A stretch of DNA of 64,000 nucleotides from Verrucomicrobiales bacterium (GTDB lineage Bacteria > Verrucomicrobiota > Verrucomicrobiia > Verrucomicrobiales > DEV007). Position 1 is the stretch's first letter. Each line of letters begins with the position of its first letter. The stretch spans positions 11,663-75,662 of the forward strand of contig JAYGGE010000099.1 of assembly GCA_046581505.1 (NCBI GenBank). Reading direction: 5' to 3'. Position numbers and translations under genes: made by a program. Of this stretch, positions 2,613-47,195 are shown piece after piece. The notes below the pieces were generated by a model. The model saw only the letters and a program-made list of their open reading frames with translations, had not been told where the DNA came from and did no database searches.

Positions 2613-2703
2613 AACCTCTCTATTAACCTCAAATTTTTCCGACCAGCTATTTTTATTCAATTAGCCATAAAAACGGCATTGACCAAACAGCTCTTGCGGG
2701 GCA

Positions 2704-2733: not shown

Positions 2734-2736
2734 AAT

Positions 2737-3207: not shown

Positions 3208-3285
3208 ATTTTTCCCTCACTTTAAGGAACCTCAACACCCACCAGAAGTACTTGACCAATTATCAACAACAAAGCAGCGCAGAAA

Positions 3286-4425: not shown

Positions 4426-4431
4426 AAAGTC

Positions 4432-4797
4432 ATGGCTAGGAATCGAAAACGTTATCAGCGCCGACTTGATATCGGTTCAATCATATCACTGTTCTCTGTT
4501 GCAGTGGTTTTCGCAGTTGTCGCGTGCGGATTTGTAGGCATTAAGAACGCTCATGTCGAGCGCAGTGATCAGCGGCAGACCCTTGAGGAGAAGATCTCGA
4601 TCATGGAAAAGGAGGTGGATACCATTGACCTGCGGATTGCCTCCCTCTGTGATCGCCGTGTACTGGCAGCGAGCCTACACAAGTATGGCAGCAAACTTGT
4701 GCCGATCGAGACCAGTGAAGAACTCCTCGGATTGCCTTCAGAGTTACCGGAGGCACTGGCATTTGGCAGGATCCAGGAGTTCCAGAATCATCATTAA
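4432..4797 (+). CDS. ftsL: Cell division protein FtsL-like (bitopic, coiled coil)
   Basis: 121 aa with a basic N-terminus (MARNRKRYQRR), one TM helix (IISLFSVAVVFAVVACGFVGI), then a heptad-like segment. It sits in the conserved position between rsmH and ftsI. No diagnostic motif; the call rests on position and architecture. Confidence 0.55.
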   Translation: MARNRKRYQRRLDIGSIISLFSVAVVFAVVACGFVGIKNAHVERSDQRQTLEEKISIMEKEVDTIDLRIASLCDRRVLAASLHKYGSKLVPIETSEELLGLPSELPEALAFGRIQEFQNHH

Positions 4798-4811
4798 TAT
4801 TAGCCTTACAG

Positions 4812-6686
4812 GTGGATAGCCGTTCCGTATACAGACGCACTTTTGCAGTTACCACTTTCCTTGTAGTGGTGTTCAGTGCTCTGTCGGCGAGGATTGTCTA
4901 TGTACAGGTGGTGAACCATGAGCGGCTTTCGAAGATCGCGAGAACCGAGCGCTTGAAGCGTGAAGATTTGCCCGCGGCCCGCGGCCTGATATTTGATCGC
5001 CATGGTGAAATTCTCGTGCAAAACCGGCATGTGCGTGATGTTATCGCCGATCGCTATCATTTGATTGATATCAATGTTTGCCGCAAGGCTGTAGCAGTTG
5101 CTGAAGACCTCACTGTAAGGCAAGTGAAACGGCTCTTTAATGACAATCAGGTTCGCAGCCGGTTCATTCAAATTGCGGATAATACGTTGAGTGAGCTGCT
5201 GGGGAGTGATGGCGCGAGAGTCAGGGATATTGTTGCCGAGGGAGCGGGAAGGGATCATGTGGTGGTTTTTCGTGATCTTGAGTTCGGCAGGGCGGAAAGG
5301 ATGCGCTTGCTGCTCCTTGAACGCGGCATAGGCGGGTTCAGCTTTAAGGATTCGATGAAGAGGTATTACCCAAACCCGGGCCGTTTGGCCCAGGTGCTCG
5401 GATATACCGATGCGGAGAATGTCGGGCGTGAGGGGATTGAAGGGGCACTTGATAAGCAACTCGCCGGAGTCCCGGGATACAGGCTTGTAGAGCGAACCCG
5501 GCGGTCAAGTGAAATTTTGTCAGGACTTAACGCGGAGTCTCTGCCTGTTGATGGTGCGAATGTTGAACTCACCATTAATATGGGCCTGCAGGAAATCGTT
5601 GAGGCTGCCATGCAGAAGGCTGTCGCGCAGTTTGACCCAGAGAAGATCATGGCGGTATTCATGGATCCGTCCACCGGCGAGATACTGGCGATGGCAAGCA
5701 GACCCGACTTTGATCAGGAAACGCGCAAGGGAACGCGTAAGATCCATCCGGTTTCCGATAGATATGAACCGGGGTCGACTTTCAAGGTAGTTGCGCTTGC
5801 CGCCGCTTTTGACAAGCAGCTTATCACGCTGGACTCGGTATTCTTCTGCCACAATGGGAAATACCATGCGCCTGGCCTGTTTCTCAGTGATCACCGTGCT
5901 TTTTCCTATCTCAGTTCACAGGAGATTCTTTCCCAATCGAGTAATATAGGTGCTTTCTTTATTGCCAAGAAGGTGGAGGACGAGGCGGGAATCGGAACCT
6001 TCCATGGTTACATCAGGAATTTTGGTTTCGGAACCCGTACCGGAATAGAACTTACCGCCGAGGCGGCGGGAATGGTTACCGGACCGAAAGACAGAGCCTG
6101 GAGCAGGACTTCACTTTCGAGAATCGCCATGGGCTATGAGGTCGATGTCACCGCCCTGCAGATGGTATCTGCACTCTCGGCAATTGCCAATGGCGGCAAG
6201 TTGATGAAGCCGCAGATTATCCAGAAGATCAGTTCGCCGGAAGGGGAACCGATTTATCAGTTGCAACCTAAGAAAATTCGCCGAGTGATCAGCGAAGAAG
6301 CGGCAAATATGCTGATTACCGCGCTTACTGCAGTCGTTGCCGATGGTGGAACCGGAGAGAATGCAATGGTCGATGGGTTTGTAGTTGCGGGCAAGACCGG
6401 AACTACCCGAAAACTCCGTAATCCCAGAAACAAAGGATATTACCATGGACGTTATGTAGTCTCCTTCATGGGATTTCTTCCGGCGGAAAATCCCCGCCTT
6501 GCAGGCATTATTGTGGTTGATGATCCGAAGAATGCAGCGCGTTATGGCGGCACAGTTGCCGCACCGATTTTTTCCGAGATTGCATCAGCGGCGATGCCCT
6601 GCATGGGCATACAGCCAATGGTTCCCCTCCCCCGGGCGATTAAAAATGTGCGTCGTGCGGTGGATATTGGAGGAGGGCGCCACTGA
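4812..6686 (+). CDS. ftsI: Peptidoglycan D,D-transpeptidase FtsI (class B PBP)
   Basis: GTG start and an N-terminal TM helix. Transpeptidase motifs are present: SxxK (GSTFKV), SxN (SSN) and KTG(T) (AGKTGTT). Confidence 0.85.
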   Translation: MDSRSVYRRTFAVTTFLVVVFSALSARIVYVQVVNHERLSKIARTERLKREDLPAARGLIFDRHGEILVQNRHVRDVIADRYHLIDINVCRKAVAVAEDLTVRQVKRLFNDNQVRSRFIQIADNTLSELLGSDGARVRDIVAEGAGRDHVVVFRDLEFGRAERMRLLLLERGIGGFSFKDSMKRYYPNPGRLAQVLGYTDAENVGREGIEGALDKQLAGVPGYRLVERTRRSSEILSGLNAESLPVDGANVELTINMGLQEIVEAAMQKAVAQFDPEKIMAVFMDPSTGEILAMASRPDFDQETRKGTRKIHPVSDRYEPGSTFKVVALAAAFDKQLITLDSVFFCHNGKYHAPGLFLSDHRAFSYLSSQEILSQSSNIGAFFIAKKVEDEAGIGTFHGYIRNFGFGTRTGIELTAEAAGMVTGPKDRAWSRTSLSRIAMGYEVDVTALQMVSALSAIANGGKLMKPQIIQKISSPEGEPIYQLQPKKIRRVISEEAANMLITALTAVVADGGTGENAMVDGFVVAGKTGTTRKLRNPRNKGYYHGRYVVSFMGFLPAENPRLAGIIVVDDPKNAARYGGTVAAPIFSEIASAAMPCMGIQPMVPLPRAIKNVRRAVDIGGGRH

Positions 6687-6705
6687 CAGAAGTTTTGGTG
6701 ATCTG

Positions 6706-8295
6706 ATGCGATTGAACACATTAGCAGAGGCGGTGAACGGTGCGGTTGTCTCGGGAGAGGGCGATCCGGAGATCAGTTCGCTGTGTTACGATTCGCGAAA
6801 GGCATCAGAAGGAGCACTGTTTTTTGCGATCAACGGCGGCAAGGTTGACGGACATGAATACATCGGGCAGGCAATCAAATTGCGTGCCGCAGCGGTCGTT
6901 GTTGAGCGGGGTGAAGTTGAACTTGGAGTGCCGACAGTCGGAGTGCCGGATGGCAGGAGTGCCATGTCTGCAATTGCCGATGTGTTTTATGGCAATCCGT
7001 CGGGATTACTGAAGGTTGCCGGAGTTACGGGAACCAACGGCAAGACGACTACTGCATTATTGCTCTGCCATTTGCTTAATGCTGCCCATCGGCGGTGCGG
7101 TTTGCTTGGCACGGTGAAATATGATCTTGGCGGGGAAGATGTCACTGTTACCCGCACGACACCTGAGTCGGCGGATTTGCAGGGCTATCTTGCGAGGATG
7201 GTGGACAACGGATGCGTCGCTGCGGTAATAGAGGTTTCATCGCACGGGATTGCTTTGAAAAGGACTGCTGATGTGCAGTTTGACGTCGCGATTTTCACCA
7301 ACCTATCCCGTGATCATCTCGACTTTCATGGTGACATGAGTTCGTATTTTTCCGCCAAGCGCGAATTCTTTGACCAGATCTCCTCCCGCGATGGAAAGAA
7401 AAAATCTCTGGCTGTTATTAATAGAGATGATCCATCGGGCAGAAAATTGCTTAACGATTTTCCCAAGGGAAGCGCTTCGGCAGTTTCCTATGGCCTTGGA
7501 ATTGGCGCGGATTATCTTGCCAGCGATCTGCGTCAGAGCCGTGACGGGATAGAGTTCAACCTCCGGGTTGCAGGCAGGCAACTGCGGGCAAAGATGCCAT
7601 TGATCGGGCACTTCAATGTATACAATGCCCTTGCCGCCCTGGCTGCGGGAGTGGGGATGGGCCTCAACCTGCGGGAGGCAGTCACGCACCTTGCGGAATT
7701 TCCACAGGTTCCCGGCCGCCTCGAGAGTGTTTCTGATAACAGGGCTTTCCATGTTTATGTCGATTATGCCCATACGCCGGATGCTCTGGAAAATACGCTG
7801 ACAACCCTGCTCGGACTTGAACCCCGCCGCTTGATTGTTGTTTTCGGATGTGGAGGAAACAGGGATACAGAAAAGCGTGCAGAGATGGGGGCTATTGCCG
7901 CCCGTTTGGCGAACTATGTGATTATTACCTCTGATAATCCGCGTGATGAGGATCCGCAGGAGATAATATCCGACATAGAGGCCGGGTTCAAAGGGGAGCA
8001 CTTCGAGAGTGTGGTTGATCGCCGTGAAGCGATCGGGCTGGGAGTGTCGTATCTCATTCCCCGGGACATTCTTCTAATTGCCGGCAAAGGGCATGAGGAT
8101 TATCAGGAGTTTGCCGATCATAGAGTTGCCTTTGATGACCGCGAGGTGGCACGCCAAATGCTCAGGGATCGGGATCATGTCCGGGCAGACATGGTGCGCG
8201 AAAAGCGCGAGGAGATGGAAGCCAGGGAGAAACAGCGGCAAGAGGATTCTCGCGGGAGATTGAATGATGAGTCAACGGATTGGAGGGAGGATTGA
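6706..8295 (+). CDS. murE: UDP-N-acetylmuramoyl-L-alanyl-D-glutamate--2,6-diaminopimelate ligase MurE
   Basis: GVTGTNGKTTT P-loop, a DNPR motif (ITSDNPRDEDP, mDAP-type) and AGKGHEDYQ. ATG 6706 (MRLNTLAEAV...) is preferred over the track start 6499, which overlaps ftsI. It has an unusual charged C-terminal tail of about 45 aa. Confidence 0.9.
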   Translation: MRLNTLAEAVNGAVVSGEGDPEISSLCYDSRKASEGALFFAINGGKVDGHEYIGQAIKLRAAAVVVERGEVELGVPTVGVPDGRSAMSAIADVFYGNPSGLLKVAGVTGTNGKTTTALLLCHLLNAAHRRCGLLGTVKYDLGGEDVTVTRTTPESADLQGYLARMVDNGCVAAVIEVSSHGIALKRTADVQFDVAIFTNLSRDHLDFHGDMSSYFSAKREFFDQISSRDGKKKSLAVINRDDPSGRKLLNDFPKGSASAVSYGLGIGADYLASDLRQSRDGIEFNLRVAGRQLRAKMPLIGHFNVYNALAALAAGVGMGLNLREAVTHLAEFPQVPGRLESVSDNRAFHVYVDYAHTPDALENTLTTLLGLEPRRLIVVFGCGGNRDTEKRAEMGAIAARLANYVIITSDNPRDEDPQEIISDIEAGFKGEHFESVVDRREAIGLGVSYLIPRDILLIAGKGHEDYQEFADHRVAFDDREVARQMLRDRDHVRADMVREKREEMEAREKQRQEDSRGRLNDESTDWRED

Positions 8296-30274: not shown

Positions 30275-33200
30275 CTACTGACTGATTTCAACCCGCAGCC
30301 GGATTTGGTGTATTGTCGCGCTGGGAAGGGGAGCTGGACACCTGAGAGTTATCCATTGCCGTCCATCCTCTGAGGGAGTCAGTGTGCCAAAGGGGATCGT
30401 GCTTGTAGTCCACGTTACGGAATCACTGGAGATTTCCCCGCTGATTTGCAGGTCATTGGCATTTGCCCGGGCAAGGAAACGAATTGCAAGATACTCATTG
30501 CCGTCGGCATTGACAATCAGGGCTATCATTTCAGGACGATCGTCCGATGTATTGGGATCGGTAGCGAATGCGTATTCCATTAAGTTTTCGATGGCATCGG
30601 AATCCGGGTCGGATCCCGGTGCGGAGATCGATTCAAAATCGGGAGATGCCGGGTCAAAGTTGTTCGTTATCCAGGAGGCATAGCCCGGGGTGCGGATCAT
30701 GCCTCCGGGACTTCCGTCAATTTGCTCGGAGCTCTGCCAGCTTTCGGGCAGCGAATGGTCGGGATTGGTTTCGGGTGCTATCAGGGTGAGTGTAAAGCCT
30801 TTACCCTTGGCAGTGGTTGGCCAGGGCAACTCATCAGAATATGTGAAGCTCTTGATTATCGTGCTGTTGGCGGCAAGCAGGGTAATGCTCTCGCCGTTGT
30901 TGCTGAGCTTGCTGTCATTCCCGAATTCACCGGCGATTTTCTCTTTGATGGCGTTCCCGTAACGGGCAGCCATGGCTTCCGTGTCCTCGACAATCAGCAA
31001 TTCCCCGCCTGGAGCGAGCGTATGCACAGGGCTGTCAAGATCAAAGGTGAAGTCGATGCCCTGTGAAAAACTGGTGCCGACAAGGTCAATGGTTGCGTCA
31101 CTGATATTCTTCAACTCAATGAATTCAAAGTCGGTGCGACCGCCGGCAACTGCCATCTCGGCTAATCCGGATGGCGGGCGGGGCCGATAGTTAAATTCAC
31201 TGACAACGAGATTGGAAGCCGATGCAAGCTGGCCAACAAGGAAGGTGGCCCCGGTGAGTGCCGACCACTCATTGCTCCCCGTTTTGATGGCCCGCGCCTT
31301 TATCAGGCTGCTTTGCTCCAGGGCGAATGCATCGGTATAGAGGATTGCACCCGGGGATGCCCCGCCACCCTCAATTGCGATGGAGGCGGTAAGTTTCGGC
31401 AGGCAAAGCAGGTCGCTGCTGGTGGGGGAGGAGTTGAGTGCTTGGATGGCGAGCATGTTATCGCCTTTCTTCAGTGAGTCCCTGAAGGCTGAAATGTCGA
31501 AATTCTGGGAGATCACTGCCTGGACGTCTGCGTGTATTGCCGTTGCTGCCGAGTTCCATGACACATCAGCGGGGGCATTGGAAGAGCTTGCCACACGGCT
31601 GCCGTTGAGGTAGGCGACGAAGGCATCATCATACTTCATTGACAGTGTAAGTGCATCGAACCCGGAGATATCCACATCCTCATTGATGGTGAACGGGACC
31701 CGTACAAAGACACTGGAAGTGACTGCAGACATTGCGGTGACATCAAGGTTGATGAACGGCTGATAATTGGTCCCGCTGGTCTCGTAACCGATACCGGTTT
31801 TCCCCTGTATCCACTGTTCGGCATTCGCCGGGGCGGCAAGATCAGTCCAGGTCGCTGCTAACCCGGCTCCGCCGTTGGCTTCCGAGGGGATAAGCGCCTC
31901 GGCGCTTACAACTTCGTCAACCAGGATGAGCGACTCGATTGTCGGCGGGAGGTAGGGATCACTGCCATCGGTTGTATAGTAGATATCTGCATCATCGGCA
32001 GTCATGCTGAGCGGGAACCCGGTAGCCACTGCACCGCCGTGCTGGTTGAAAATGGGTGCATTAGTGGCGGGATAGAGTCCACGGGAGCGGAATTGCTCAA
32101 GCACAGTGGCGGTCCGTCCCGGGATAAAGTTATTCCTCACCCAGAATACCTCGCTCAGCCAGGTGTCGTTGCGGGTGAATGCTGTCGACAGGGCAGTGCC
32201 CTCATCTCCCCAGCGGGCGGATTCACCGACCATGGGTGCGCGCAATTCTCCCCACATCGCATCCCAGCGGGAGCGGTTCCGCTCAACCGACATTATCCCG
32301 TCATTGAAAAAATGTTTATGCAACCGGTCGGCGAAGTGGAGTTGAAAGGTCGGGTACGAACGCAGTGCGGTATAGAATTCAACGGGAGATCCCGCGTCAT
32401 TGACAGCGGTAAGGTCAAAATCCGTCACTCTCTGGTCGGGCGGGTTTGCCGGGTTGAGGTTAAACATGAGGTGGATGCCCATTGCCATCTCGGCATCCCA
32501 TGTGAAGAAGCGGAAAGTTCCCTGCTTACCCCGGCTTCTGCGCCCGGCGTACCAGTTCTTGTTGCTGAATACGGTCACATCGGCTCCGGAACGCAGGATT
32601 GGCCCGCACCAGTCGTAATCGGCTGACCACATGCGCACGATGAGATGGTCGATATAGTCATCAAGGTCAATATAATCCTGAATAGCCTGGTATTGGGATG
32701 CGGAGGTGATGCCTTTGGAGGTGATTGCGCGTGCTTCTTCCCAGGCGGCGTTATTTCCATCGACCAGCGTGTAATCTTCACCGAAGAAGGTCGGGTGGTG
32801 CAGGACATCATAGTCTTCCTCGTCGCCCCCGAGATGGGATTCAAAAAAGGCGGCATTGGCGCGTTCGTGGAGGTCATAGACTCCCCAGTAACGGCCGTTG
32901 ATGTAGAGGTGGGTGTAGCGACCGCGTGGTGAGAGGATGCCCATTTCCACCTCGGTCTTGCGCAGGAACTGGTCGCGCATCAGTGTTCCGTGGGGCGGCA
33001 GGTCTTTTTGCTGGTCACGGCCGAAGGTGGCGGCAAGTGACCAGGAATCATGTCCGCCACCACGCAGAACCAACTGGTCAAAGGACTCAACAGGACTTCC
33101 GGCAAACAGGGGATATTCCAGGCGGCGATCTCCATATCCGCCGCGGAAATACAGGCGGAAGGGTTTTTTAGGGTGAGAGCGCGCGTTGCCGCCGTGGATC

Positions 33201-34747
33201 CGGATGCCGGCATCAACCTGGAACTCATCGGAAGGATCGAGCGGGTTGAAGAATTCCATTGAGACAGGGATTTCGGCATCGCGTCCGGATAGATTGTAGT
33301 TGGTGTGAGTTCCATTCGGCCCGAAGAAGGAGGCGTATTCGAGAACCAGGGAGATGACAGGGAGGTTCCCGGAGAGATCCCCCTCGATGGTTGCCGAGTA
33401 TGCCGGGTCATTGACCACATTGTCATCCATGTCAGCCTGATTCTTGATGTCCGAGGCGAACAGGTAGCTTTGTGTGTCAATATTGGTCGGTTTATAACCT
33501 GTCTTGTAGGCTATAGCGCGCAGGATGGTGGTTGAATTGACGGCAATGGGGTCGGTATAAAGGGTTCCTGTCGATGCATCCGGGGCGGAGCCGTCTGTTG
33601 TGTAGCGTATTGCAGCTCCTTCTGTTTCGGTGGTGATGGATACTGAGATCTCGGAGTTGTAGTAGCCTCTTTTTATTGAGAACTGCGTGTCGGAGACAAA
33701 GCCCTCGACACTTTCGCCGTTAAGCGCTCCGGGGGTGGGCAGGGCAAGATATCCTTGTGCGCCGGGTACTGCGGGATCGGCCTTGAATGCCAGTAACTCG
33801 GGAAGTATCAGAAAGTCGGAACTGTCGATACCCCAATTGAGCCCTTGGATGGCAAGGATGTTTTCACCGGCCACAAGGGAGGCAATTCCTGCCGAGGCAC
33901 TGAATTGTTCAGGGATTATCGCCTCGCTGTCGGCATGGAAATTGGCAGATTCAGAATTCCAGGCCGGGGTCAGTGGTCCACGTGAGGATGCAACCAGTTT
34001 GCCGTTGACCCATGCGATGAAGCCATCGTCAAAACGCATATTGAGTTGCAGATCAGCGATGGTTTCCGGATCGGTTATTTCAAAGGGGATTCTCAGGTAG
34101 AGTGTAGCGTTCAGGTTGCTCATTTGTGCCTGGACATTTCCGCTCTGGCTTATATACGGGCCATAACCCGCGTTCAGTTCATAGCCGAACCCGGTGGATC
34201 CCGATGTCCAGCCACTGTCATCAAAATCCGCAGTATTCCAGTCGCTTACGGGGCCGCTTGGAACCAGCCACTTCGCGGATGCCGGATCGGGAACAGCGAC
34301 CTCGGTTGTCGTGGTGATTGATGTCCCGTAGGAGACATCCTCAAATTGTTTCTGGTAATTAAAGTCCTTTGCAACAGTGATTCCATCCGGGGCTACCAAT
34401 GCAAGATATTCACCGTTTGAATTAAGTGAAAAGTTGGTATGCAGTTCTGCCGCCGGGTCATTGAGGTTTTTACCGGAAGCGAAGACAATAAGATAACCTG
34501 CCGCGGGAATGGAAACTTCGGGGAATATCCATTTGGTCAACTCTTGAGCATCGTCAGTAAGGCTCCAGCCGGAAACGTTGACCGGATCCGCTGACGGGTT
34601 GTGAATCTCGATCCAGTCGGAGCTGTCCCCGTCTCTATCGGTAATTCCAGAGCGATTTTCTGCGAGAAACTCAGAAATGGTTAACTGTGCCGTGGCGGAA
34701 AGCGAGAAAGTCAGTGACAGGCCAGTGAACAAAGAAAGCAGGCGCAT
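30275..34747 (-). CDS. Secreted multidomain protein: lamin-tail domains, CotH kinase-like domain, chitobiase/hexosaminidase C-terminal-like modules
   Basis: Signal peptide MRLLSLFTGLSLTFSLSATA. LTD-like segments are ISEFLAEN...DWIEIHNPSADPVNVSGWSLTDD (N-terminal) and VSEFNYRP...FEFIELKNISDATIDLVGTSF (C-terminal). The CotH-like core (about aa 460-890) includes LYINGRYWGVYDLHERANAAFFESHLGG. Fn3_assoc-like segments are IRYTTDGSAPD...LRAIAYK and IYYTTDGSDPY. Confidence 0.8.
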   Translation of the reverse strand: MRLLSLFTGLSLTFSLSATAQLTISEFLAENRSGITDRDGDSSDWIEIHNPSADPVNVSGWSLTDDAQELTKWIFPEVSIPAAGYLIVFASGKNLNDPAAELHTNFSLNSNGEYLALVAPDGITVAKDFNYQKQFEDVSYGTSITTTTEVAVPDPASAKWLVPSGPVSDWNTADFDDSGWTSGSTGFGYELNAGYGPYISQSGNVQAQMSNLNATLYLRIPFEITDPETIADLQLNMRFDDGFIAWVNGKLVASSRGPLTPAWNSESANFHADSEAIIPEQFSASAGIASLVAGENILAIQGLNWGIDSSDFLILPELLAFKADPAVPGAQGYLALPTPGALNGESVEGFVSDTQFSIKRGYYNSEISVSITTETEGAAIRYTTDGSAPDASTGTLYTDPIAVNSTTILRAIAYKTGYKPTNIDTQSYLFASDIKNQADMDDNVVNDPAYSATIEGDLSGNLPVISLVLEYASFFGPNGTHTNYNLSGRDAEIPVSMEFFNPLDPSDEFQVDAGIRIHGGNARSHPKKPFRLYFRGGYGDRRLEYPLFAGSPVESFDQLVLRGGGHDSWSLAATFGRDQQKDLPPHGTLMRDQFLRKTEVEMGILSPRGRYTHLYINGRYWGVYDLHERANAAFFESHLGGDEEDYDVLHHPTFFGEDYTLVDGNNAAWEEARAITSKGITSASQYQAIQDYIDLDDYIDHLIVRMWSADYDWCGPILRSGADVTVFSNKNWYAGRRSRGKQGTFRFFTWDAEMAMGIHLMFNLNPANPPDQRVTDFDLTAVNDAGSPVEFYTALRSYPTFQLHFADRLHKHFFNDGIMSVERNRSRWDAMWGELRAPMVGESARWGDEGTALSTAFTRNDTWLSEVFWVRNNFIPGRTATVLEQFRSRGLYPATNAPIFNQHGGAVATGFPLSMTADDADIYYTTDGSDPYLPPTIESLILVDEVVSAEALIPSEANGGAGLAATWTDLAAPANAEQWIQGKTGIGYETSGTNYQPFINLDVTAMSAVTSSVFVRVPFTINEDVDISGFDALTLSMKYDDAFVAYLNGSRVASSSNAPADVSWNSAATAIHADVQAVISQNFDISAFRDSLKKGDNMLAIQALNSSPTSSDLLCLPKLTASIAIEGGGASPGAILYTDAFALEQSSLIKARAIKTGSNEWSALTGATFLVGQLASASNLVVSEFNYRPRPPSGLAEMAVAGGRTDFEFIELKNISDATIDLVGTSFSQGIDFTFDLDSPVHTLAPGGELLIVEDTEAMAARYGNAIKEKIAGEFGNDSKLSNNGESITLLAANSTIIKSFTYSDELPWPTTAKGKGFTLTLIAPETNPDHSLPESWQSSEQIDGSPGGMIRTPGYASWITNNFDPASPDFESISAPGSDPDSDAIENLMEYAFATDPNTSDDRPEMIALIVNADGNEYLAIRFLARANANDLQISGEISSDSVTWTTSTIPFGTLTPSEDGRQWITLRCPAPLPSATIHQIRLRVEISQ

Positions 34748-39249: not shown

Positions 39250-39378
39250 GTTAATTGATGCTCGTGACCCATGTGCAATGGGTGCTAAACTAGTGATTCA
39301 GGGGTTGACTCTAATCGACCCGGGCAGGCTCATTATATTACAGCTTTCAGTTTGAACTCTATTCTTCCGTTTCTTGAC

Positions 39379-40146
39379 ATGGTTACAGGCAAGGTAATTC
39401 CCATTTTTTTGGCAGCGATACTTGGTAGCGCTATCTGTTCAGCAAATGCAAAATCCTTGGCTGAGTTCAAGGATGGCAAGAGGACATGGAGCTACGAGAA
39501 AGTCGCCGTTCATGGCTGGGTTGTTTTCATCGAGATCTCGATCGCGAGGGACGTTGCATTGAAGGAGAAGATTAAAGGGCAACTGACAGTCGGCATTGAG
39601 AACTTCCTCGATAAAGTGCCTGAAGAGGCACTGGATTTCCTCAGGAAAATTCCGATCTGGGTAAGCAATGAGCCGGGTTACCCGCTGCGGAAGAATGAAA
39701 GAGGGGTTATACCCTTTCATCGCAGCAAGGCCTGGCTGCGCGGGCACGGGCTAAACCCCCACATGGCACCCGGTGTTCATGTCATCAATCCCAAGGCTGC
39801 TTTTTTTGAGCATAGAATTTTAGAATGGGGGCCGATGACCTTGCTGCATGAACTGGCACACGCTTACCATAACGTGAAACTCAAGCTGAGTAATGAAGTG
39901 ATTAACAATGCGTATGCGAAGGCGATGGCCAAAGGGCTTTATCTCAGGGTTCCCGGCCGGAAGGACAAGTCGAAGAAAGTCAGGGCGTATGCAGCGACCA
40001 ATCGCGAGGAATATTTCGCTGAACTCACCGAGGCCTATTTTGGAAGAAATGACTGGTTCCCGCATAACCGTGCAGAACTCAAGGGATATGATCCGCAGGG
40101 TTACAGGATGATCGAGGAGTTGTGGGACGCGGCGGCCTTCCGCTGA
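39379..40146 (+). CDS. Secreted putative zinc metalloprotease (HExxH ... EYFAE), uncharacterised family
   Basis: Signal peptide MVTGKVIPIFLAAILGSAICSANA, LLHELAHAYH at nt 39847-39861, and NREEYFAELTEAYFGRNDWFP. Clear paralog of 48125..48865. Confidence 0.6.
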   Translation: MVTGKVIPIFLAAILGSAICSANAKSLAEFKDGKRTWSYEKVAVHGWVVFIEISIARDVALKEKIKGQLTVGIENFLDKVPEEALDFLRKIPIWVSNEPGYPLRKNERGVIPFHRSKAWLRGHGLNPHMAPGVHVINPKAAFFEHRILEWGPMTLLHELAHAYHNVKLKLSNEVINNAYAKAMAKGLYLRVPGRKDKSKKVRAYAATNREEYFAELTEAYFGRNDWFPHNRAELKGYDPQGYRMIEELWDAAAFR

Positions 40147-41330: not shown

Positions 41331-41598
41331 AGGTTTGTTGTTGTTATAGAAGGGGGTTCTCATTTTTTATCGCAGGTTAATCTGCACGCTTGCGTGGATT
41401 CACGCAGGATCTTCAAAGCTCCGGATTATCAACAATCAGCCTAATGGTTTAGGTGCCGTGATCTTGGATGAACGGTCGTAAATACGTTATTTCTATGATT
41501 GAAACATGGATCTGGCTCACGTAATTCATTTACAATGAATATACAATCGTGTAATTTGTAGTAGCAGGTGAACAGTATTTGATCCCTGAGAAACCTGT

Positions 41599-42303
41599 AT
41601 GTATAAGGCTTACTTTAATAATGAACTGCAAGGTTGCCGCGATTCACTGCGAAGGGGGTTCACACTTCTTGAGTTGCTGGTGGTCCTGATGATCATTTCA
41701 ATGCTGGTGGTATTGTCGATACCGGCGATCAAGGGCTTAACATCCACAGCGGGAATGAGCACTGCGACCCGCCATATTTCCAGCATGATGGCCCTGGGGC
41801 GCAGCCGTGCCATTGCCAAGCGCACTATTGTCAGGTTTGGTATTGTTACCACCTGGGAGGATGACAGTCAGGCCGCCTATCGCAAATACGGCCTTTGGGA
41901 ATGGGATCGGGAGACAGAACAATTTGTAGCCTTTCAGGAATGGAAAACCCTGCCGCAGGGCTTGGTGTTCGAGACAGACCGGCGAGACTATATTCGTGCT
42001 GCCGATTATGCGCAGAAAGACGGCAGCAGTGTGCGTGGTGATTTCCTGCCAACAGGTGAAGCGGAGTCCTTTATCGAGAATGTCCGCTCAGAGCGTGTCA
42101 AGGTGGTGTTTTTCGAGTTTACACCCTCTGGGGGTGTTCGACTTCCGGGTGGCGAAGAGCGCAACGTATTAATTGTCGTCATCAACGGCTATATCGATTC
42201 TGACGGTGGCGGGAATATTGTGTATACTGACGAGGAAAAGAATAACTGGGCGCAGTTCAATATAGATACTCTAACCGGGCGCGTACGCATCTACAGGCCA
42301 TGA
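41599..42303 (+). CDS. Prepilin-type N-terminal domain protein, GspH/FimT-like (Verru_Chthon cassette protein D-like)
   Basis: ...SLRRG|FTLLELLVVLMIISMLVVLSIPA (Glu+5). 234 aa. The stop overlaps the next start (ATGA at 42300-42303). Confidence 0.7.
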   Translation: MYKAYFNNELQGCRDSLRRGFTLLELLVVLMIISMLVVLSIPAIKGLTSTAGMSTATRHISSMMALGRSRAIAKRTIVRFGIVTTWEDDSQAAYRKYGLWEWDRETEQFVAFQEWKTLPQGLVFETDRRDYIRAADYAQKDGSSVRGDFLPTGEAESFIENVRSERVKVVFFEFTPSGGVRLPGGEERNVLIVVINGYIDSDGGGNIVYTDEEKNNWAQFNIDTLTGRVRIYRP

Positions 42304-42824
42304 AGAATGCAGGTTTGTCAGTTTCCCGGGGATTCAGCCTCATTGAGATCGTCATTACTGTCGGGATTCTCGCGACAGTTGTGGTTTCACTGGTCGGAAT
42401 CCTTCCGGTAGGGATTAAATTTGCGGAAGATGCCGCTAATAGAACGGTCTTGGCTGTGATTCTTGAGGATGTGCACAACAGGCTTGAGGGGCAGTTATTG
42501 GAACCCGGTGAAGTTTCCTTGAGTCCATTTTTCTACGACCGTCAGGGGCTCCATATTGGTGAGGACTCAGATGAAGAGGTAAAGATGGGGCGTCTTTACA
42601 GGGCAGATGCCCGGCTGATTGACATTGCGGAAGGTTCACGCCTGAAACATACCAGCGGGCTGATGGCTGTCAGGATTGATGTGCGGTGGCCGGTTGACAC
42701 ATATTCCGGGGTGCCGCTACGGAAGGGAAAGCCGCAGGAGACAATCACTTTTTACGTAACGCCGCTTACCGGGTCCGATTGGCCGGCGATTGACACGAAT
42801 TACCGGCCAAAGATAGAGTTTTGA
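42300..42824 (+). CDS. Prepilin-type N-terminal domain protein, GspI-like (Verru_Chthon cassette protein B-like)
   Basis: MKNAGLSVSRG|FSLIEIVITVGILATVVVSLVGILPVG. 174 aa, paralog of 35..559. Confidence 0.7.
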   Translation: MKNAGLSVSRGFSLIEIVITVGILATVVVSLVGILPVGIKFAEDAANRTVLAVILEDVHNRLEGQLLEPGEVSLSPFFYDRQGLHIGEDSDEEVKMGRLYRADARLIDIAEGSRLKHTSGLMAVRIDVRWPVDTYSGVPLRKGKPQETITFYVTPLTGSDWPAIDTNYRPKIEF

Positions 42825-43819
42825 TGTCTGCTAAACGCAATATTTCAGCAGCGGCGTTCACGCTGCTTGAGTTGATGGTGGCGATGGTTGTCTTTGCCGC
42901 GGTACTGGTGATTTTCTCGACAATGACTTCAGGCATTATCAAGATGTGGACGGAGGGTGAAAGCAGGATTGAAACCTATCAGAACGCGCGCGGGGCACTG
43001 GAGATTATTACGCGGGAGCTTACTCCCGCAGTGGTTGATACCCGCATGCAGTTCGCGGTGATCCCGGCAGGTGAACTGACCCGCCGGGGGGCAAAACATC
43101 TGGTTGCAGGTTCTCCTGTTATCCTGTGGATGGCCCCCCTTGGTGAGCAGGGGAGCTTGCGCTGCGTGGGCTATTACCTGTTTCGTGACGAGGCAAGGGG
43201 ATTTTATCGTCTTAAGCGTATCTATATCAGGCCGCTGGAGGACAGGGCTTATTTCCCGGTGATGGTCAACGAGAGCAATCCGCGTGACCCGGCACTGCGC
43301 ATCAGTGCAACCAATGCGGACTGGTTTTTGCGTAACTGGGATGCAAGGGCTTTTGATGAGGAGGATCCTGCAAATGATGATGTCATTGTGAGCACAGTGG
43401 CGGATAACGTCATTGCTTTCTGGGTGCAGTGCCTTGATCTTGCCGGCAATCCCGTGCCGGCGCTGATGAAGGCCTCGAATCATGCCGGGAGTGCAATGAT
43501 CTATAACTCCGCTGCTTATTTCCAGATGGCAACCACCACTGCATTTGACAGCGGAAAAACCACTGAATTCCTTGCCGCCAGCGGACAGTCCATGAAGGCT
43601 AATCGTGTGCCGGCCGCAGTGGATGTCACCGTGGTAACCATCGATTCAACGGTGATTTCCAGGGGAATGGATATCCCGGCAGTGGAGAACATTTTCGCGG
43701 CAGACGGCTCGCTTGACGTTGAGGAATCTATTATGAGCTTTAATCGCGCGCTGCTTGACAGAAACATTAAAAACGGCAGGACGTTCACGACAAGGGTGAA
43801 TTTACTCAATGGTCAGTAA
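42824..43819 (+). CDS. Prepilin-type N-terminal domain protein, GspJ-like (Verru_Chthon cassette protein C-like)
   Basis: MSAKRNISAAA|FTLLELMVAMVVFAAVLVIF. ATG 42824 overlaps the upstream TGA (TGATG). Paralog of 625..1674. Confidence 0.7.
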   Translation: MSAKRNISAAAFTLLELMVAMVVFAAVLVIFSTMTSGIIKMWTEGESRIETYQNARGALEIITRELTPAVVDTRMQFAVIPAGELTRRGAKHLVAGSPVILWMAPLGEQGSLRCVGYYLFRDEARGFYRLKRIYIRPLEDRAYFPVMVNESNPRDPALRISATNADWFLRNWDARAFDEEDPANDDVIVSTVADNVIAFWVQCLDLAGNPVPALMKASNHAGSAMIYNSAAYFQMATTTAFDSGKTTEFLAASGQSMKANRVPAAVDVTVVTIDSTVISRGMDIPAVENIFAADGSLDVEESIMSFNRALLDRNIKNGRTFTTRVNLLNGQ

Positions 43820-46800
43820 CCTCATAGATAAGAGAAGACAGCTTGCCGGGGACGCATCCCGGCGCTGTGGTGTTGCGCTGGTAACAACCATGTTCCTGTT
43901 GGCTACCCTGACAATCCTTGTCATCGGGTTTATCAGTAGCATGTCCGTCGAGTCGGGGGCTTCCTCCTCCATTCAGGACGCACAGCGCACCAAGATGATC
44001 GCCCAGGGGGCGCTCAGTCATGCAATTGATTTGTTGCGCACCAATATACCTAGTCCTGCTCCAATTAATGAGGTTGAGGCACCGTTCAATCTTGTGCAAC
44101 CCGAAATCTCCGGGACTCAGTCCCGTCCGTTTTCAATTGAGGTTAATTCGGCTCCAGTGAGTGATGCGGAGCACTGGATTGTGAACCCTGGAAGATTGAC
44201 TGTTATTGGCAGTTCCGGGACCGTAAGCCATGTGCCCCTGCATACCGGGGAAGTTACTGCGGACCCAGCCGGCGAATTGACTCGGGATGCGCTATCCGTT
44301 GACCTGAACGAACCTTTGCCAGGGGAGCAATCACCTCCCATAGCGATGGATCCCAATGCCAGCGGCAGTTCATCTTCAAGGTCGCGTCCGGAAATGCGGG
44401 TGCGTTGGGTCCCGGTTCTTGAAGACCCGGGGCAATTGCCGGGAAAGGACAACAGCATGGTCGGCCGCTATGCGTTCTGGATGGATGATGAGTGTGCGAA
44501 ACTCAACTTCAATGTGGCTCTTGGTAAACCATCGCCCAGTGAGGATCGTGCTTTCCACCAGATGCTCAGGATGGGGATGATGACCCCGTTTTTCTTCCGG
44601 GGCGACGGGGCAACCACATTCAGTGATAGAAATCGGCGGCCCTGGTCACTGGGACATCCCCGATCCGTGAACCTGGACGTGCTTTTTGCTTCATCCTCTG
44701 AACTGGATCATAACCGCCTTCTGGCATACAGCTGGCTGCATGGCTTCAGCCGTTACATGGAGGCCATCCTTGATTTCGTGAATGTTGCCGATCCCGAGCT
44801 CTGGCTGAACAGGCAACGATTCAACCTGAGCTTCTACAGCCGGGCGCCTGAGTTCAATGTTTTCGGCAAATCCCGGCTGTTTACCACCAATTATCCCTTA
44901 TCACTTGAGGCAGGACCTCTCTATCAGCAGCCTTTCATGGTGAATCCTGCAGGTGACCGGGTTTTGCATTTGCATTCACTGATGGGCAGTTTCGGATTCA
45001 CCCGTCGAGTTCAGGATGATAGCGGTGGCAGTGTCCTTGCAGGCAACATGGTCAACCGGGCGCAACTCGAGATGCTGATGCGCTACATGAGCCGAAAGTG
45101 GCCCGGTTACGGGGCAAGCTTCATTGATAAATACGGTGAGCGCGAATGTTTCCAGATTGCCCTGAACATGCTGTTGATGGCGCGCATGGCCACCACCTCG
45201 ATGGGGGGTGAGCTGGAGGCGTTCAGTCGTACTTATTCCTTGAGAACAACGAGTGTTAATTATGCACCGCATCAGCAGGAAATGAGAGGCAATGCCCCGG
45301 AACGGATGTACTGGAGATTTAATACCGGGGGTGAGGAAGTGCTGATGCTGCCGCAGACCCCGGGACCGCACATCACGGAGGTGCGCCTGATCTTTGAGCC
45401 GGAACCGGCACCCACTGCCGGCGAGTATTACATTACTTATCGTTACGAGACCGAATACTACATGCCCTCATTCGGGCCGGTTGTCCGCGCAGAACATTTT
45501 CCAACCCGGGTTGATTATCTGCGGATTAAGACATCCGGTGCCGGAGCCAGGAATGAGCAGGAGTTTGGTGCGCGATCACCCGCGGACCAGCACGGATCAC
45601 GAAATTGGAACCACAGAAGGAGCCTGGGGCAGTTAATTGCGAGGCCAAGCGGGAATATTGGCCCGGCAAAGGCCACTTTACGTGGCGGGGAGGTGAACCA
45701 GCGCGTGATTGCCAGTTCCGTGCCGCAGGTTATTGGCAGGCAACGCCGCCTGATACCCGTCGAGGATGCCCAGAAGCTTGTCTATCGCCCGGCTTTGGGC
45801 TCCACGGTAAGGTTGAGTTACAAGATCAGGCTTGGCATGGGAGTTCAGCCTGACCTTGAACGGGCAGGGAGTGGTGCAGGTCGTCCGCGACAGATGATTC
45901 CTCTTGGCGAGACGGAATCGGAGACCTTGAGCGGAGATGCCATTATTGACTTGTTAAGTGGTGAACCTCTGGTGCTTGCCTGGGAAATTGCTGACCCGAG
46001 ATTAAGCGGGATAGCGAAGGAATGGGTGCTTGATACGGATGACAGTGATGGTGAGTTCGGCACCCCGGGAGAGAAGAATTCAATTGAACCGGAAGAAGAC
46101 TCAGAGGAGAAGAGCAAATATAAATATATCCAGCGCGGTCCGAAAGGAATGCGCCTGGCAAGGCACCCATTCAACCGTGCTGATGAATACAACTCGAAAA
46201 GCCGGACATCATCCAAGGGCTACTGGTCGGTAATTCACACCGGCATGCAATCAGGGGTTCCATGGAGAACCTGGGATCTGGGGGCTGCGGTAGAGCAGGG
46301 GAATCCCCCGGATTGGCTGCTGCTTGAGCTGCTGGGCGCGACTTATCCGATGCAGCACGCCAACTGGAGGATAGACAATACCCTGCCCGATAGTTTCTCG
46401 ACGGTTTCATACATGAACAGCACGGCGGGACAGATTAACATCAACTCGCGCATCTACCCGAGGAACCGGTGGTTTACCGCGCCGGAGCGACGCAGGCCCC
46501 TGGAGGGCGTGTTCAAGCATTTGCGATCGGATAGTGAAGTCGATAAATTCATTGACGGCATTATTGCGCATCAGGATGACAATGAGGTCTTTGAATTTAT
46601 CGGCGAGTTGGCGAATGTGGATGGATTCGATAACGGAGAGGATCGCTGGAAATCCGAGGCTTTTTTGCGTGATATGGCAGGATGCCTGACAACCCAGTCG
46701 AATACATTTGGCCTTTGGGGAGTTGCCCAAACGGTGAAAAAAGTTCGAGGAAACAGTGAATATGACCGGTTTGAAAGAGGTGACAAGGTTCTTGGGGAAA

Positions 46801-47195
46801 AGCGTTTTTTTGCAATTATTGAACGCTATGTATGGCCCGGCAAAGACGGGGTTCCCGGTAATGCCCACCTTAACGAATCCGGGCGATGGGATCGGCTGGC
46901 CGTGCCCGAGAGCGAGATTAATCTGGATGATTCCGATACTGACCGTTTATTCGGGCTGCCGGGATCGCCGCCCCTGCGACGGCAGGGAGCATTGCAGACA
47001 GGACGGCGGCTTGTGCTCAATATTGACGGAAGTTATCCGGAGTATGACGGGCCCCAGAAGGTTGGAATGGATGAGTTTAGCAAGCGTTCGCTTGGAGATA
47101 TCAGCTACCGGAGATCAAGCCTGGAGGATGCCTATAACCCGCCGCAACCCGCAATCAAGTATCGTGTTACCTATTTCAAATATCTGGACAAGTAG
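43809..47195 (+). CDS. Giant GspK/PilX-like pseudopilin-cassette protein (Verru_Chthon cassette protein A-like), 1128 aa
   Basis: The hydrophobic N-terminus GVALVTTMFLLATLTILVIGFIS lacks Glu+5, as in GspK. It has a YAFWMDDECAKLNFNVA motif (nt 44469-44519) and STAGQININS (nt 46413-46442). The start overlaps the upstream gene by 11 nt. Confidence 0.75.
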   Translation: MVSNLIDKRRQLAGDASRRCGVALVTTMFLLATLTILVIGFISSMSVESGASSSIQDAQRTKMIAQGALSHAIDLLRTNIPSPAPINEVEAPFNLVQPEISGTQSRPFSIEVNSAPVSDAEHWIVNPGRLTVIGSSGTVSHVPLHTGEVTADPAGELTRDALSVDLNEPLPGEQSPPIAMDPNASGSSSSRSRPEMRVRWVPVLEDPGQLPGKDNSMVGRYAFWMDDECAKLNFNVALGKPSPSEDRAFHQMLRMGMMTPFFFRGDGATTFSDRNRRPWSLGHPRSVNLDVLFASSSELDHNRLLAYSWLHGFSRYMEAILDFVNVADPELWLNRQRFNLSFYSRAPEFNVFGKSRLFTTNYPLSLEAGPLYQQPFMVNPAGDRVLHLHSLMGSFGFTRRVQDDSGGSVLAGNMVNRAQLEMLMRYMSRKWPGYGASFIDKYGERECFQIALNMLLMARMATTSMGGELEAFSRTYSLRTTSVNYAPHQQEMRGNAPERMYWRFNTGGEEVLMLPQTPGPHITEVRLIFEPEPAPTAGEYYITYRYETEYYMPSFGPVVRAEHFPTRVDYLRIKTSGAGARNEQEFGARSPADQHGSRNWNHRRSLGQLIARPSGNIGPAKATLRGGEVNQRVIASSVPQVIGRQRRLIPVEDAQKLVYRPALGSTVRLSYKIRLGMGVQPDLERAGSGAGRPRQMIPLGETESETLSGDAIIDLLSGEPLVLAWEIADPRLSGIAKEWVLDTDDSDGEFGTPGEKNSIEPEEDSEEKSKYKYIQRGPKGMRLARHPFNRADEYNSKSRTSSKGYWSVIHTGMQSGVPWRTWDLGAAVEQGNPPDWLLLELLGATYPMQHANWRIDNTLPDSFSTVSYMNSTAGQININSRIYPRNRWFTAPERRRPLEGVFKHLRSDSEVDKFIDGIIAHQDDNEVFEFIGELANVDGFDNGEDRWKSEAFLRDMAGCLTTQSNTFGLWGVAQTVKKVRGNSEYDRFERGDKVLGEKRFFAIIERYVWPGKDGVPGNAHLNESGRWDRLAVPESEINLDDSDTDRLFGLPGSPPLRRQGALQTGRRLVLNIDGSYPEYDGPQKVGMDEFSKRSLGDISYRRSSLEDAYNPPQPAIKYRVTYFKYLDK

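Follow-up and report, generated by a model that had tools for sequence, protein, structure and literature searches.

Five co-directional genes, here named D, B, C, A and E, lie on the forward strand of a 64,000-nucleotide stretch of DNA from Verrucomicrobiota (the window, to which all positions below refer) and probably encode the complex that starts (primes) a type IV filament and forms its tip. The cassette is most likely a pilus starter or tip operon of known design, save for a cap protein of approximately 1,100 residues and an extra partner protein. Its features are:

41520–41598, + strand: conserved leader, a promoter-like block upstream of D, with TTTACA-N17-TAATTT at 41529–41557
41599–42303, + strand: D, GspH/FimU-class minor pilin, 234 aa
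42300–42824, + strand: B, putative PilV/GspI-class minor pilin, 174 aa
42821/42824–43819, + strand: C, GspJ/PilW-class minor pilin, 332/331 aa (331 from ATG 42824)
43809–47195, + strand: A, giant GspK/PilX-class cap pilin, 1128 aa
47164–47895, + strand: E, fifth cassette gene (predicted start), secreted protein of about 243 aa, no known family

The reading frames of D, B, C and A, which a first-pass annotation had placed at these positions, are borne out, and the junctions it described are seen directly in the sequence: ATGA at 42300–42303 (a 4-nt overlap of D and B), TGATG at 42822–42826 between B and C, which makes ATG 42824 the most likely start of C, and an 11-nt overlap of C and A at 43809–43819. 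Class III signals with Glu+5 are likewise present as claimed in D (RRG↓FTLLE), B (SRG↓FSLIE) and C (AAA↓FTLLE; arrows mark predicted cleavage sites), and the N-terminus of A, reading RRCG↓VALVT, is without Glu+5. That annotation had regarded the unit as four genes; it comprises five, with E as a conserved fifth, a homologue of which directly follows A in at least 43 loci. Alignment of close relatives suggests that E starts at GTG 47164, overlapping A by 32 nt, and may be translationally coupled to A; the Logan contig gene call for E begins at a later ATG, 47305. The alignment of E displays an N-terminal signal peptide and conserved motifs, and searches of Pfam and of PDB sequences gave no match. 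Upstream of D, approximately 80 nt adjoining the start codon are nearly invariant in the alignment with four relatives (L004, L005, L007, L008), and the sequence farther upstream has diverged in the same four. The consensus promoter scan made no call at this block and Rfam returned no match; from its sequence the block is a candidate promoter.

Among 65 loci found in reference genomes, most show the D-B-C-A gene order; essentially all of the 65 are from Verrucomicrobiota, with adjacent cassette genes, and related cassettes reach down to approximately 25–30% identity. Gene calling gave the strict D-B-C-A-E string in 24 of these loci, many of the others being truncated contigs. Median intergenic gaps across loci are −4, −1 and 0 nt, and several cassettes per genome are seen. 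Glu+5 is invariant among the aligned residues of D (30/30), B (28/28) and C (32/32). At −1, about 45% of the proteins in the D, B and C families have Ala instead of Gly; Ala at this position is cut less well by prepilin peptidases than Gly. A dN/dS of 0.04–0.18 for each of the five genes (three comparisons) indicates purifying selection, with 0.12–0.18 for E and 0.05–0.07 for A, the most constrained of the five. Such strong conservation of A is unusual for an exposed adhesin.

A correspondence of the four pilin-like proteins to GspH, GspI, GspJ and GspK had been proposed in the first-pass annotation and holds for all four: strongly for C (GspJ fold) and A (GspK N-terminal domain), well for D, and for B only through its N-terminal segment and gene position. 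The AlphaFold2 model of C (pLDDT 81.6, pTM 0.76) was compared with the PDB by Foldseek, and the top 8 matches are all XcpW/GspJ structures (9a1f_S, 5bw0, 3nje and 6utu_H among them) at probability 1.00 (E=4.6e-5 to 1.3e-3, TMt 0.50–0.54), the next match having E=0.26. As no PilW is among the significant structural matches, the XcpW matches cannot tell a type II secretion system (T2SS) from a pilus. C aligns with E. coli GspJ at 88% probability over 116 columns (hhalign) and scores 66.3 bits against TIGR02599 (cutoff 256.5); gspJ TIGR01711 is absent from its matches at E<=0.01.

The best match of D is TIGR02596 (Verru_Chthon D; 51.5 bits, cutoff 70), and the Pfam family N_methyl is matched at 29.4 bits, above its threshold of 21.2. 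All 30 members of the D family match GspH TIGR01708, each below its cutoff, 27/30 match XpsH and 27/30 ComGD; Phe+1 is found in 26/30. The family profile also matches FimU (4ipu) past the membrane segment (query 54–86, E=4.4e-4), and the hhalign alignment of D with E. coli GspH covers just 25 N-terminal residues. B has its best match in TIGR02598 (Verru_Chthon B; 42.2 bits, cutoff 51.4). Within the B family (n=28), 27 members match Verru_Chthon B, 21 PilV, 11 GspI and 11 XpsI, the PilV and GspI matches extending over the N-terminal segment only and staying under the cutoffs. Hhalign of B gives 33% probability, and a search of PDB sequences gave no match for B. Small (174 aa), with Glu+5 and placed between D and C, directly before the J-type gene, B may belong to the PilV/GspI class, to judge solely by its N-terminal segment and its place in the gene order.

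Two regions of A are of note:

43851–44495, + strand: residues 15–229 of A, homologue of the GspK N-terminal domain (profile-profile hhalign)
47154–47183, + strand: residues 1116–1125 of A, extreme C-terminal beta-strand KYRVTYFKYL (DSSP strand in the model)

Position +5 of A is occupied by M, L, T, I or V, with Glu in none of the 61 aligned residues; the missing Glu+5 is a hallmark of GspK/PilX (PMC7541494). All 42 scanned members of the A family match TIGR02600, 40 match GspK NF037980 and 5 match PilX_N; A of the window itself scores 124.3 bits against TIGR02600 (cutoff 332.3) and 25.9 bits against NF037980 (cutoff 130). Aligned by hhalign with a profile of 30 GspK members, the A profile reaches a probability of 97.1% (E=7e-11, 152 columns), pairing A 15–229 with GspK 5–157. 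The invariant FNLN and DWIDxD positions align, and D160, N167 and D226 of A pair with the invariant or near-invariant D99, N107 and D153 of GspK. Later parts of A align weakly with GspK (11% probability, E=0.003), and the Pfam T2SSK (PF03934) alpha-domain was found in none of the 42 members. Among Pfam matches of the same 42 at E<=0.1 there is no PilY1/PilC or VWA family and nothing family-wide. The AlphaFold2 model of A (pLDDT 88.9, pTM 0.88) has no match at E<=1e-3 in PDB and BFVD; its top Foldseek matches include no propeller and no PilY1 structure, and its 50 best no CpaL or ComZ structure. The match with XcpX 9a1f_T, a chain whose identity is deduced from its length, is not significant (E=0.32). 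To judge from the model, most of A appears to have no counterpart among solved structures. The A superfamily comprises 886 clusters at E<=1e-30.

The most conserved regions of A are the terminal-strand segment, with the consensus NPPQPxIKYRVxYFKYLD, and a block at residues 991–1020. The protein terminates 2–3 residues past the strand in 64/64 members. The sheet of PilK is completed by such a terminal strand, which is provided in cis in GspK, CpaL, ComZ and the V. cholerae competence-pilus cap protein, and in trans by PilC/PilY1 and MshQ (PMC13533445). By analogy, the C-terminal strand of A is a candidate sheet-completing strand of the cap subunit, which fits the published model. The in-cis K homologues (Tad CpaL/TadG of about 600 aa, Thermus ComZ and V. 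cholerae competence K; PMC13533445) also appear to share the domain order of A, namely an N-terminal pilin-like cap domain, a large non-pilin region and a conserved beta-strand at the extreme C-terminus; A is about twice as long as CpaL. Provided that the weak collinear alignment with GspK is right, the main insertion of A (about 640 aa) would lie at the position of the alpha-domain, and only about 105 aa would be inserted ahead of the last strand.

The four proteins had initially been recognised as Verru_Chthon cassette proteins A–D. These are indeed their nearest families, with TIGR02596, TIGR02598, TIGR02599 and TIGR02600 as top matches of D, B, C and A, respectively, and family members match their own cassette model in 42/42 cases for A, 27/28 for B and 30/30 for D. 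Membership does not follow: since D, B, C and A are below every curated cutoff, they represent a sister lineage of Verru_Chthon. True members of these families are encoded 39 kb from D-B-C-A-E:

35–559, + strand: B0, true Verru_Chthon B (TIGR02598 85 bits, cutoff 51.4)
625–1674, + strand: C0, true Verru_Chthon C (TIGR02599 345 bits, cutoff 256.5)
1678–2325, + strand: D0, true Verru_Chthon D (TIGR02596 130.5 bits, cutoff 70), signal RGG↓FTLIE

With these three further prepilin genes at 35–2325, D-B-C-A-E is not the sole cassette in the 64 kb. Pairwise identities between the two sets are 23–42% (B0 and B 42% over 66 aa; C0 and C 23% over 307 aa, E=1e-12; D0 and D 25% over 235 aa). C0 matches gspJ TIGR01711 (E=3.9e-6, 26.8 bits, cutoff 64.85), D0 matches gspH TIGR01708 (E=3.4e-10), and no A-type gene was found upstream of the triad. 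The Verru_Chthon families thus resemble the present cassette as the nearest families of all four proteins, from the same phylum, and in combining three prepilin-type proteins with one very large protein; they differ in gene order, which is D-B-C-A followed by E here and B-C-D in the true set. The Verru_Chthon cassettes were named just for co-occurrence, and the literature searched holds no mention of these families.

At the sensitivity used, the claim that the window holds no machinery gene or major pilin is upheld: Pfam scans of 20 flanking ORFs found no pilus or secretion machinery, and a tblastn search of the window, with GspC/D/E/F/G/L/M/O of E. coli and a PilB as queries, returned no match. 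A machine encoded elsewhere, as had been suggested, is plausible, since other genomes have the cassette beside pilB, or near gspF/gspG-like genes or a secretin. In four loci (L052, L058, L062, L068), the cassette is divergent from an operon with a PilB ATPase of type IVa, which scores 541 bits over its full length against M. xanthus PilB (3jc8) and 431 bits with partial coverage against GspE; MglA-like and MglB-like genes share this operon. One locus (L013) has gspF-like and gspG-like genes 7–9 kb downstream of the cassette, and five (L022–L025 and L045) have a secretin approximately 6 kb downstream. Such links were found in just three lineages. The "orphan" state of the cassette had been considered noteworthy; however, unlinked minor-pilin operons are routine in type IVa pilus systems, and in M. 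xanthus three minor-pilin/PilY1 clusters serve one machine (PMC7541494). Interchangeability of the tip complexes, likewise proposed in the first-pass annotation, is a possible reading of the several cassettes per genome. Neighbours of the cassette in the window and in related loci include secreted and degradative proteins, e.g. CBM9, glucuronyl esterase and sulfatases.

Beyond the operon anatomy and its conservation, the pilin classes and the GspK homology of A shown above, we infer how the signals are processed, where the proteins sit, how the terminal strand acts, what E does and which machine is served, and combine these points as follows. D, B and C, as equivalents of GspH/FimU, GspI/PilV and GspJ/PilW, would be prepilins cut by prepilin peptidase after Gly or Ala at −1, with Glu+5 kept. 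A would act as a GspK/PilX-type cap, and as it lacks Glu+5, we propose that it can occupy the apex only. With about 900 extra residues, including the insertion of about 640 aa, A would end in the invariant beta-strand, and this strand would fold back in cis, completing the sheet of the cap domain. The completed sheet would license the docking of B and C, and the major pilin would then polymerise beneath. A would merge two roles that are separate in type IVa pili, that of PilX and that of a tip protein of PilY1 type (about 1,000 aa). E would be exported by Sec and is probably a periplasmic partner or chaperone of A. The ATPase, platform, peptidase, secretin and major pilin would be encoded elsewhere, most likely as a type IVa pilus machine.

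Minor-pilin/PilY1 clusters of type IVa pili (Pseudomonas fimU-pilVWXY1 and the three of M. xanthus) resemble the cassette in their unlinked machinery and several sets per genome (PMC7541494), in an apex subunit without Glu+5 and an apex component of about 1,100 aa, both of which would be A here, and in a PilB-type ATPase, which adjoins the cassette in four loci. M. xanthus TfcP, an accessory periplasmic protein encoded in such a cluster (PMC8833165), would be a parallel to E. In contrast to these clusters, there is no separate PilY1 gene here, the large protein A being itself the pilin-like cap; no PilY1 or vWA domain was found in A; and E, for which no relatives are known, is not a cytochrome.

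The Verru_Chthon families and their larger sister lineage hereby gain a concrete, testable proposal of function. The 2026 model in which a terminal beta-strand licenses tip assembly would extend to Verrucomicrobiota, and A would in this case exceed in size every in-cis cap subunit described to date. Protein E and the part of A that is not GspK-like (approximately 900 residues) are without structural or functional precedent. The cassettes also offer an ecological starting point: Verrucomicrobiota abound as polysaccharide degraders in soil, water and gut, and D-B-C-A-E is an obvious place to seek their pilus-tip cargo. Tentatively, and with considerable doubt that all three hold together, these ideas may be extended: A would stand for a novel, very widespread class of self-capping giant cap pilins found in Verrucomicrobiota only, fusing PilX/GspK with a PilY1-sized module of folds new to solved structures; E would be a dedicated, previously unrecognised periplasmic partner; and multiple cassettes, including cap-less triads, would let one pilus machine show different tips, perhaps capturing polysaccharides or particles rather than serving host adhesion.

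It is unlikely, but deserves the closest consideration among the alternatives, that the cassette forms the tip of a T2SS pseudopilus and not of a surface pilus, with D, B, C and A as true GspH/I/J/K equivalents. The large module of A would then contact cargo or the secretin in the periplasm, and the system could serve the many polysaccharide-degrading enzymes that these bacteria secrete. T2SS gspH-I-J-K (tip GspI-J-K/XcpV-W-X; PDB 3CI0, 5VTM, 6UTU) shares the four co-directional, overlapping genes in H-I-J-K order (the gspH–K genes of E. coli K-12 overlap as well), class III signals with Glu+5 in the H, I and J types and none in K, the GspJ fold in C, and GspK N-terminal homology including invariant Asp/Asn in A 15–229. 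Points in favour of a T2SS are GspH (30/30 of D) and GspK (40/42 of A, as against 5/42 for PilX_N) as best families outside Verru_Chthon, XcpW as the source of all structural matches of C, the gspF-like and gspG-like genes in L013, the secreted and degradative neighbours, and a terminal strand brought along by A itself, as by GspK (PMC13533445). From gspH-I-J-K the cassette differs in several respects: A has 1128 aa compared with about 330 in GspK, with the T2SSK alpha-domain undetected; C exceeds GspJ by about 130 aa; E follows A where gsp operons have gspL and gspM; D-B-C-A-E does not lie inside a gsp operon; and the curated GspH/I/J/K cutoffs are not reached by D, B, C and A. Against a T2SS tip, the XcpW matches of C do not discriminate between the two systems, as noted above, and B members match PilV (21) more often than GspI (11). 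The ATPase adjoining the cassette in four loci is of full-length PilB type and stands beside MglA/MglB homologues, and with several cassettes per genome, a choice of pilus tips is a better fit than one secretion piston. In its size, about 120 kDa, the cap is nearer to PilY1 or MshQ than to the T2SS tips known to us.

Far less probable still is a complex anchored in the inner membrane that forms no filament, holding A in the periplasm or at the surface with E as soluble partner, and with a function other than priming. Such a complex would agree with a window without machinery or major pilin, with the lack of a recognisable pilus-related fold in most of A, with a conservation of A beyond that expected for an exposed adhesin, and with the lack of a counterpart of E in known pilus operons. 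However, there are constraints specific to filament assembly: Glu+5 never varies in three subunits and is missing from the fourth, the genes remain coupled in H-I-J-K order, and the GspK domain has retained its invariant residues. In addition, pilB adjoins the cassette in four loci. Finally, four proteins below curated cutoffs and a cutoff-passing set 39 kb away might suggest a true Verru_Chthon cassette that was duplicated and is now decaying, but this reading is effectively refuted by selection and conservation data: every ORF is intact, dN/dS is as low as given above, the arrangement recurs in the 65 loci, the A superfamily is large, and A yields a well-scoring model.

An ORF check reproduced the coordinates and strand of the four coupled genes that the first-pass annotation had described as a minor-pseudopilin cassette, and this finding is genuine. 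The junctions are present in the sequence (ATGA at 42300-42303, TGATG at 42822-42826, and an overlap of 11 nt between C and A), as are the three class III signals with Glu+5 in D, B and C and the N-terminus of A lacking Glu+5. Because of the TGATG, the ATG at 42824 is the likely start of C. The unit is, however, not limited to four genes, as had been assumed, since a fifth gene, E, follows A. The cassette reads:

41599-42303, + strand: D, 234 aa, signal RRG|FTLLE
42300-42824, + strand: B, 174 aa, signal SRG|FSLIE
42821/42824-43819, + strand: C, 332/331 aa, signal AAA|FTLLE
43809-47195, + strand: A, 1128 aa, RRCG|VALVT, without Glu at +5
47164-47895, + strand: E, start (GTG 47164) and end (47895) from alignment with close relatives

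According to this alignment, E overlaps A by 32 nt. A gene is called at its position on an identical metagenomic contig, and at least 43 related loci have a homologue immediately 3' of A.

The reading of the genes as an H-I-J-K-like tip cassette is supported by class matches that are strong for C (by structure) and A (by residues 15-229), good for D and weak for B. In the D family, GspH was matched in 30/30 members, and XpsH and ComGD in 27/30 each; the family profile also matches FimU (4ipu) past the membrane segment (E=4.4e-4), so that there is good support for D belonging to the GspH/FimU class. B is the weakest assignment, placed in the PilV/GspI class from its N-terminal segment and gene position only; PilV was matched in 21/28 members and GspI in 11/28, both over the N-terminal segment only. 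Sequence-profile searches of the PDB with B and C gave no match past the N-terminal helix. The AlphaFold2 model of C (pLDDT 81.6) has XcpW, P. aeruginosa's GspJ, as each of its best eight PDB matches (probability 1.00, TMt 0.50-0.54), after which E jumps to 0.26. Comparison of C with E. coli GspJ by hhalign yields 88% over 116 columns, and together with the predicted fold this argues strongly for the GspJ/PilW class. D, B and C share an invariant Glu+5, which was never seen in A; its absence is the hallmark that sets GspK/PilX apart from the other subunits (PMC7541494). At the prepilin -1 position, about 30-45% of D, B and C family members, including C of the window (AAA|F), carry Ala and not Gly, which suggests a cognate peptidase that may tolerate or prefer Ala at -1.

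Among 42 A-family sequences scanned, 40 matched the GspK model. Aligned by hhalign to a GspK reference profile (30 members, assembled from E. coli GspK and its relatives), A residues 15-229 match GspK 5-157 with 97.1% probability (E=7e-11, 152 columns), and this alignment extends past the helix. It pairs D160 and the invariant N167 of A with the invariant D99 and N107 of GspK (FNLN motif), and the invariant D226 with D153 (DWIDxD motif). Canonical calcium sites are known in GspK (PMC6211770), and the aligned Asp and Asn residues may be calcium ligands in A. At the level of sequence, residues 15-229 are thus strongly indicated to be of the GspK/PilX class.

Most of A has no match among solved structures. 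Its whole-chain model (pLDDT 88.9, pTM 0.88) found nothing at E<=1e-3 by whole-chain Foldseek against the PDB and BFVD; the sole pilus-related entry, non-significant, was 9a1f_T, which belongs to the XcpGHIJK pseudopilus model and, because of its length, is taken to be XcpX. A PDB sequence-profile search with A gave no match, and no Pfam domain recurred across the family, the T2SSK alpha-domain, the PilY1 domain and the vWA domain included. By hhalign, A 871-971 also aligns weakly, though collinearly, to GspK 211-293 (E=0.003, 11% probability), which pairs the invariant AGxxNxNS and SNTF of A with INxN and SxYF of GspK. This suggests that A may retain the whole GspK scaffold, with about 640 aa inserted in place of the GspK alpha-domain; a GspK piece at the N-terminus joined to an unrelated C-terminal part is the less favoured alternative. 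The best-conserved parts of A are a block at 991-1020 and the last 18 residues (NPPQPxIKYRVxYFKYLDx); the final residues form a predicted strand, and the chain stops 2-3 residues past it in 64/64 members.

Filament initiation requires a final beta-strand that completes the sheet of PilK-family subunits, and the I-J dimer recognises the cap subunit once this has happened (Ellison et al., PMC13533445). According to the same study, the strand is provided in trans by the final ~10 residues of PilC/PilY1, with the same predicted for the ~1,200-aa MshQ, and in cis by GspK, CpaL (~600 aa), Thermus ComZ and the V. cholerae competence-pilus cap subunit; large insertions occur in several in-cis donors (PMC13533445). 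A fits the in-cis class of GspK, CpaL and ComZ, of which it would be the largest member. We propose that A may unite the roles of PilX and PilY1 in a single chain; the cassette contains no PilY1 gene, which is consistent with this idea.

E has an N-terminal signal peptide followed by ~190 mature residues with conserved motifs, and neither Pfam nor the PDB sequences gave a match. Its closest parallel is TfcP, in M. xanthus a periplasmic product of a minor-pilin cluster, which is reported to stimulate calcium binding by PilY1 (PMC8833165). E shares no homology with TfcP, hence its role is one that we infer, and by analogy its place in the cassette would be that of an accessory factor.

The first-pass annotation had recognised the four proteins as Verru_Chthon cassette proteins A-D. 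This family is indeed the nearest one, with TIGR02596, TIGR02598, TIGR02599 and TIGR02600 as top models for D, B, C and A; all scores nevertheless fall under the curated cutoffs. True Verru_Chthon members are present elsewhere in the window:

35-559, + strand: prepilin gene, above the curated cutoff for Verru_Chthon B
625-1674, + strand: prepilin gene, above the curated cutoff for Verru_Chthon C
1678-2325, + strand: prepilin gene, above the curated cutoff for Verru_Chthon D

Three class III signals had been counted earlier; those three stand, but a six-frame motif scan gives six in the window, the other three belonging to these genes. With identities of only 23-42% to these true members, and scores below every curated cutoff, the cassette is a sister lineage of Verru_Chthon, from which it differs by its own order D-B-C-A and its extra gene. 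Among the papers searched there was no work on Verru_Chthon or its TIGR accessions, and nothing useful on pili in Verrucomicrobia.

A candidate A-type gene 5' of this triad was rejected. On a contig reaching left of the window (L070), the gene at that place encodes an 844-aa secreted protein that is unrelated to A (hhalign 0.1%) and has no PDB sequence match; the second set is therefore without its own cap gene. It may use the cap that the cassette 39 kb away encodes, or the 844-aa protein may be a putative partner in trans. Interchangeable tips, as proposed earlier, are a reasonable candidate idea. The 844-aa protein ends ...RVKIENYKVILQ; the region in question is 35-2325 plus, upstream of the window, L070:3829-6363, and the triad lies directly 5' of mraZ and the dcw cell-division/cell-wall cluster.

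The absence of assembly machinery noted in the first reading was borne out: Pfam scans of 20 other ORFs and tblastn with E. coli Gsp proteins and a PilB revealed no assembly ATPase, platform protein, secretin, prepilin peptidase or GspG-type major pilin in the window. Minor-pilin operons of type IVa pili are normally unlinked from their machinery, and a cassette lacking it nearby is therefore not surprising. Among relatives, physical linkage was seen in three independent cases. Four related loci in other genomes (L052, L058, L062 and L068) have the cassette oriented divergently to an operon whose products are a TPR protein, an ATPase, a 650-685-aa protein with no Pfam match, an MglA-like GTPase and an MglB-like Roadblock protein. 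The ATPase aligns end to end with M. xanthus PilB (541 bits) and with partial coverage to GspE (431 bits), and the operon resembles the Myxococcus pilus-polarity module, here in a verrucomicrobial setting. In L052 it occupies 1895-7807 on the - strand, and its PilB-type ATPase carries an MshEN domain. In locus L013, genes resembling gspF and gspG lie 7-9 kb 3' of the cassette, and L022-L025 and L045 have a secretin ~6 kb 3', best matching PilQ (E=3.9e-12). On the strength of these links, a type IVa pilus is regarded as more likely than a T2SS pseudopilus; the latter keeps some probability, since T2SS families are the named ones that score best for D and A.

A decaying pseudogene cassette is ruled out by dN/dS and conservation. 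Against three relatives, dN/dS is 0.04-0.18 across all five genes, with A under most constraint. Scanning one genome per species yielded 65 loci, essentially all from Verrucomicrobiota (Verrucomicrobiales, Chthoniobacterales, Methylacidiphilales, Terrimicrobiaceae), with up to 4 per genome (e.g. strain LW23: 4). The order D-B-C-A-E is seen in most of them; 24 have the strict five-gene string as called, and many of the others are truncated contigs. Median intergenic gaps along it are -4, -1, 0 and -4 nt. An exhaustive profile search found relatives of A in 886 clusters (50% identity) with a threshold of E<=1e-30, and in 2,071 with E<=1e-10. Named members belong to Verrucomicrobiota, save for short contigs filed under the fungus Glutinoglossum americanum (P0416, NCBI KAH0534008.1; 15.9 kb) and under Chryseolinea MAGs (P0353 and L056; 5.9 and 7.0 kb), which are probably contaminant or mis-binned verrucomicrobial DNA. 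Immediately 5' of D, a block of ~80 nt is nearly invariant in close relatives and the remaining spacer has diverged; promoter and terminator consensus scans performed no better than on shuffled sequence, and no Rfam family matched in the window or in this leader.

The cassette does not represent a new category. Type IV filaments share a universal initiation complex, of which this is a lineage-specific variant, and its relatives are families that have been catalogued with no function assigned. New are its functional assignment, the putative giant in-cis cap with a large module matching no solved structure, the fifth protein E, and a window in which a cap-less triad accompanies a complete cassette.

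A conserved functional neighbour was sought and rejected, the recurrent flanking families being sulfatases, PSCyt/PSD1, TPR proteins, ABC transporters and others with no consistent partner. In one clade (L021, L024, L025 and L032), ExbB- and ExbD/TolR-like genes (judged by eye from N-terminal sequences), then large TPR proteins, lie 5' of the cassette on the same strand. Within the window, two inverted HExxH paralogues (HELAHAYH; 39352-40146, + strand, and 48125-48865, - strand), 36% identical over 213 aa, flank a CBM9 gene and the cassette; they weakly match anthrax lethal factor and M90 peptidase families, and close relatives have genes alike in size and position, judged on these two features. 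A 1490-aa secreted protein (30275-34747, - strand) with lamin-tail, CotH kinase, chitobiase C-terminal and Fn3-associated domains is unrelated to the cassette. The window has no tRNA genes. GC skew is positive in nearly all 2-kb blocks, so that cumulative skew climbs steadily, and genes lie mostly on the + strand up to ~48 kb.
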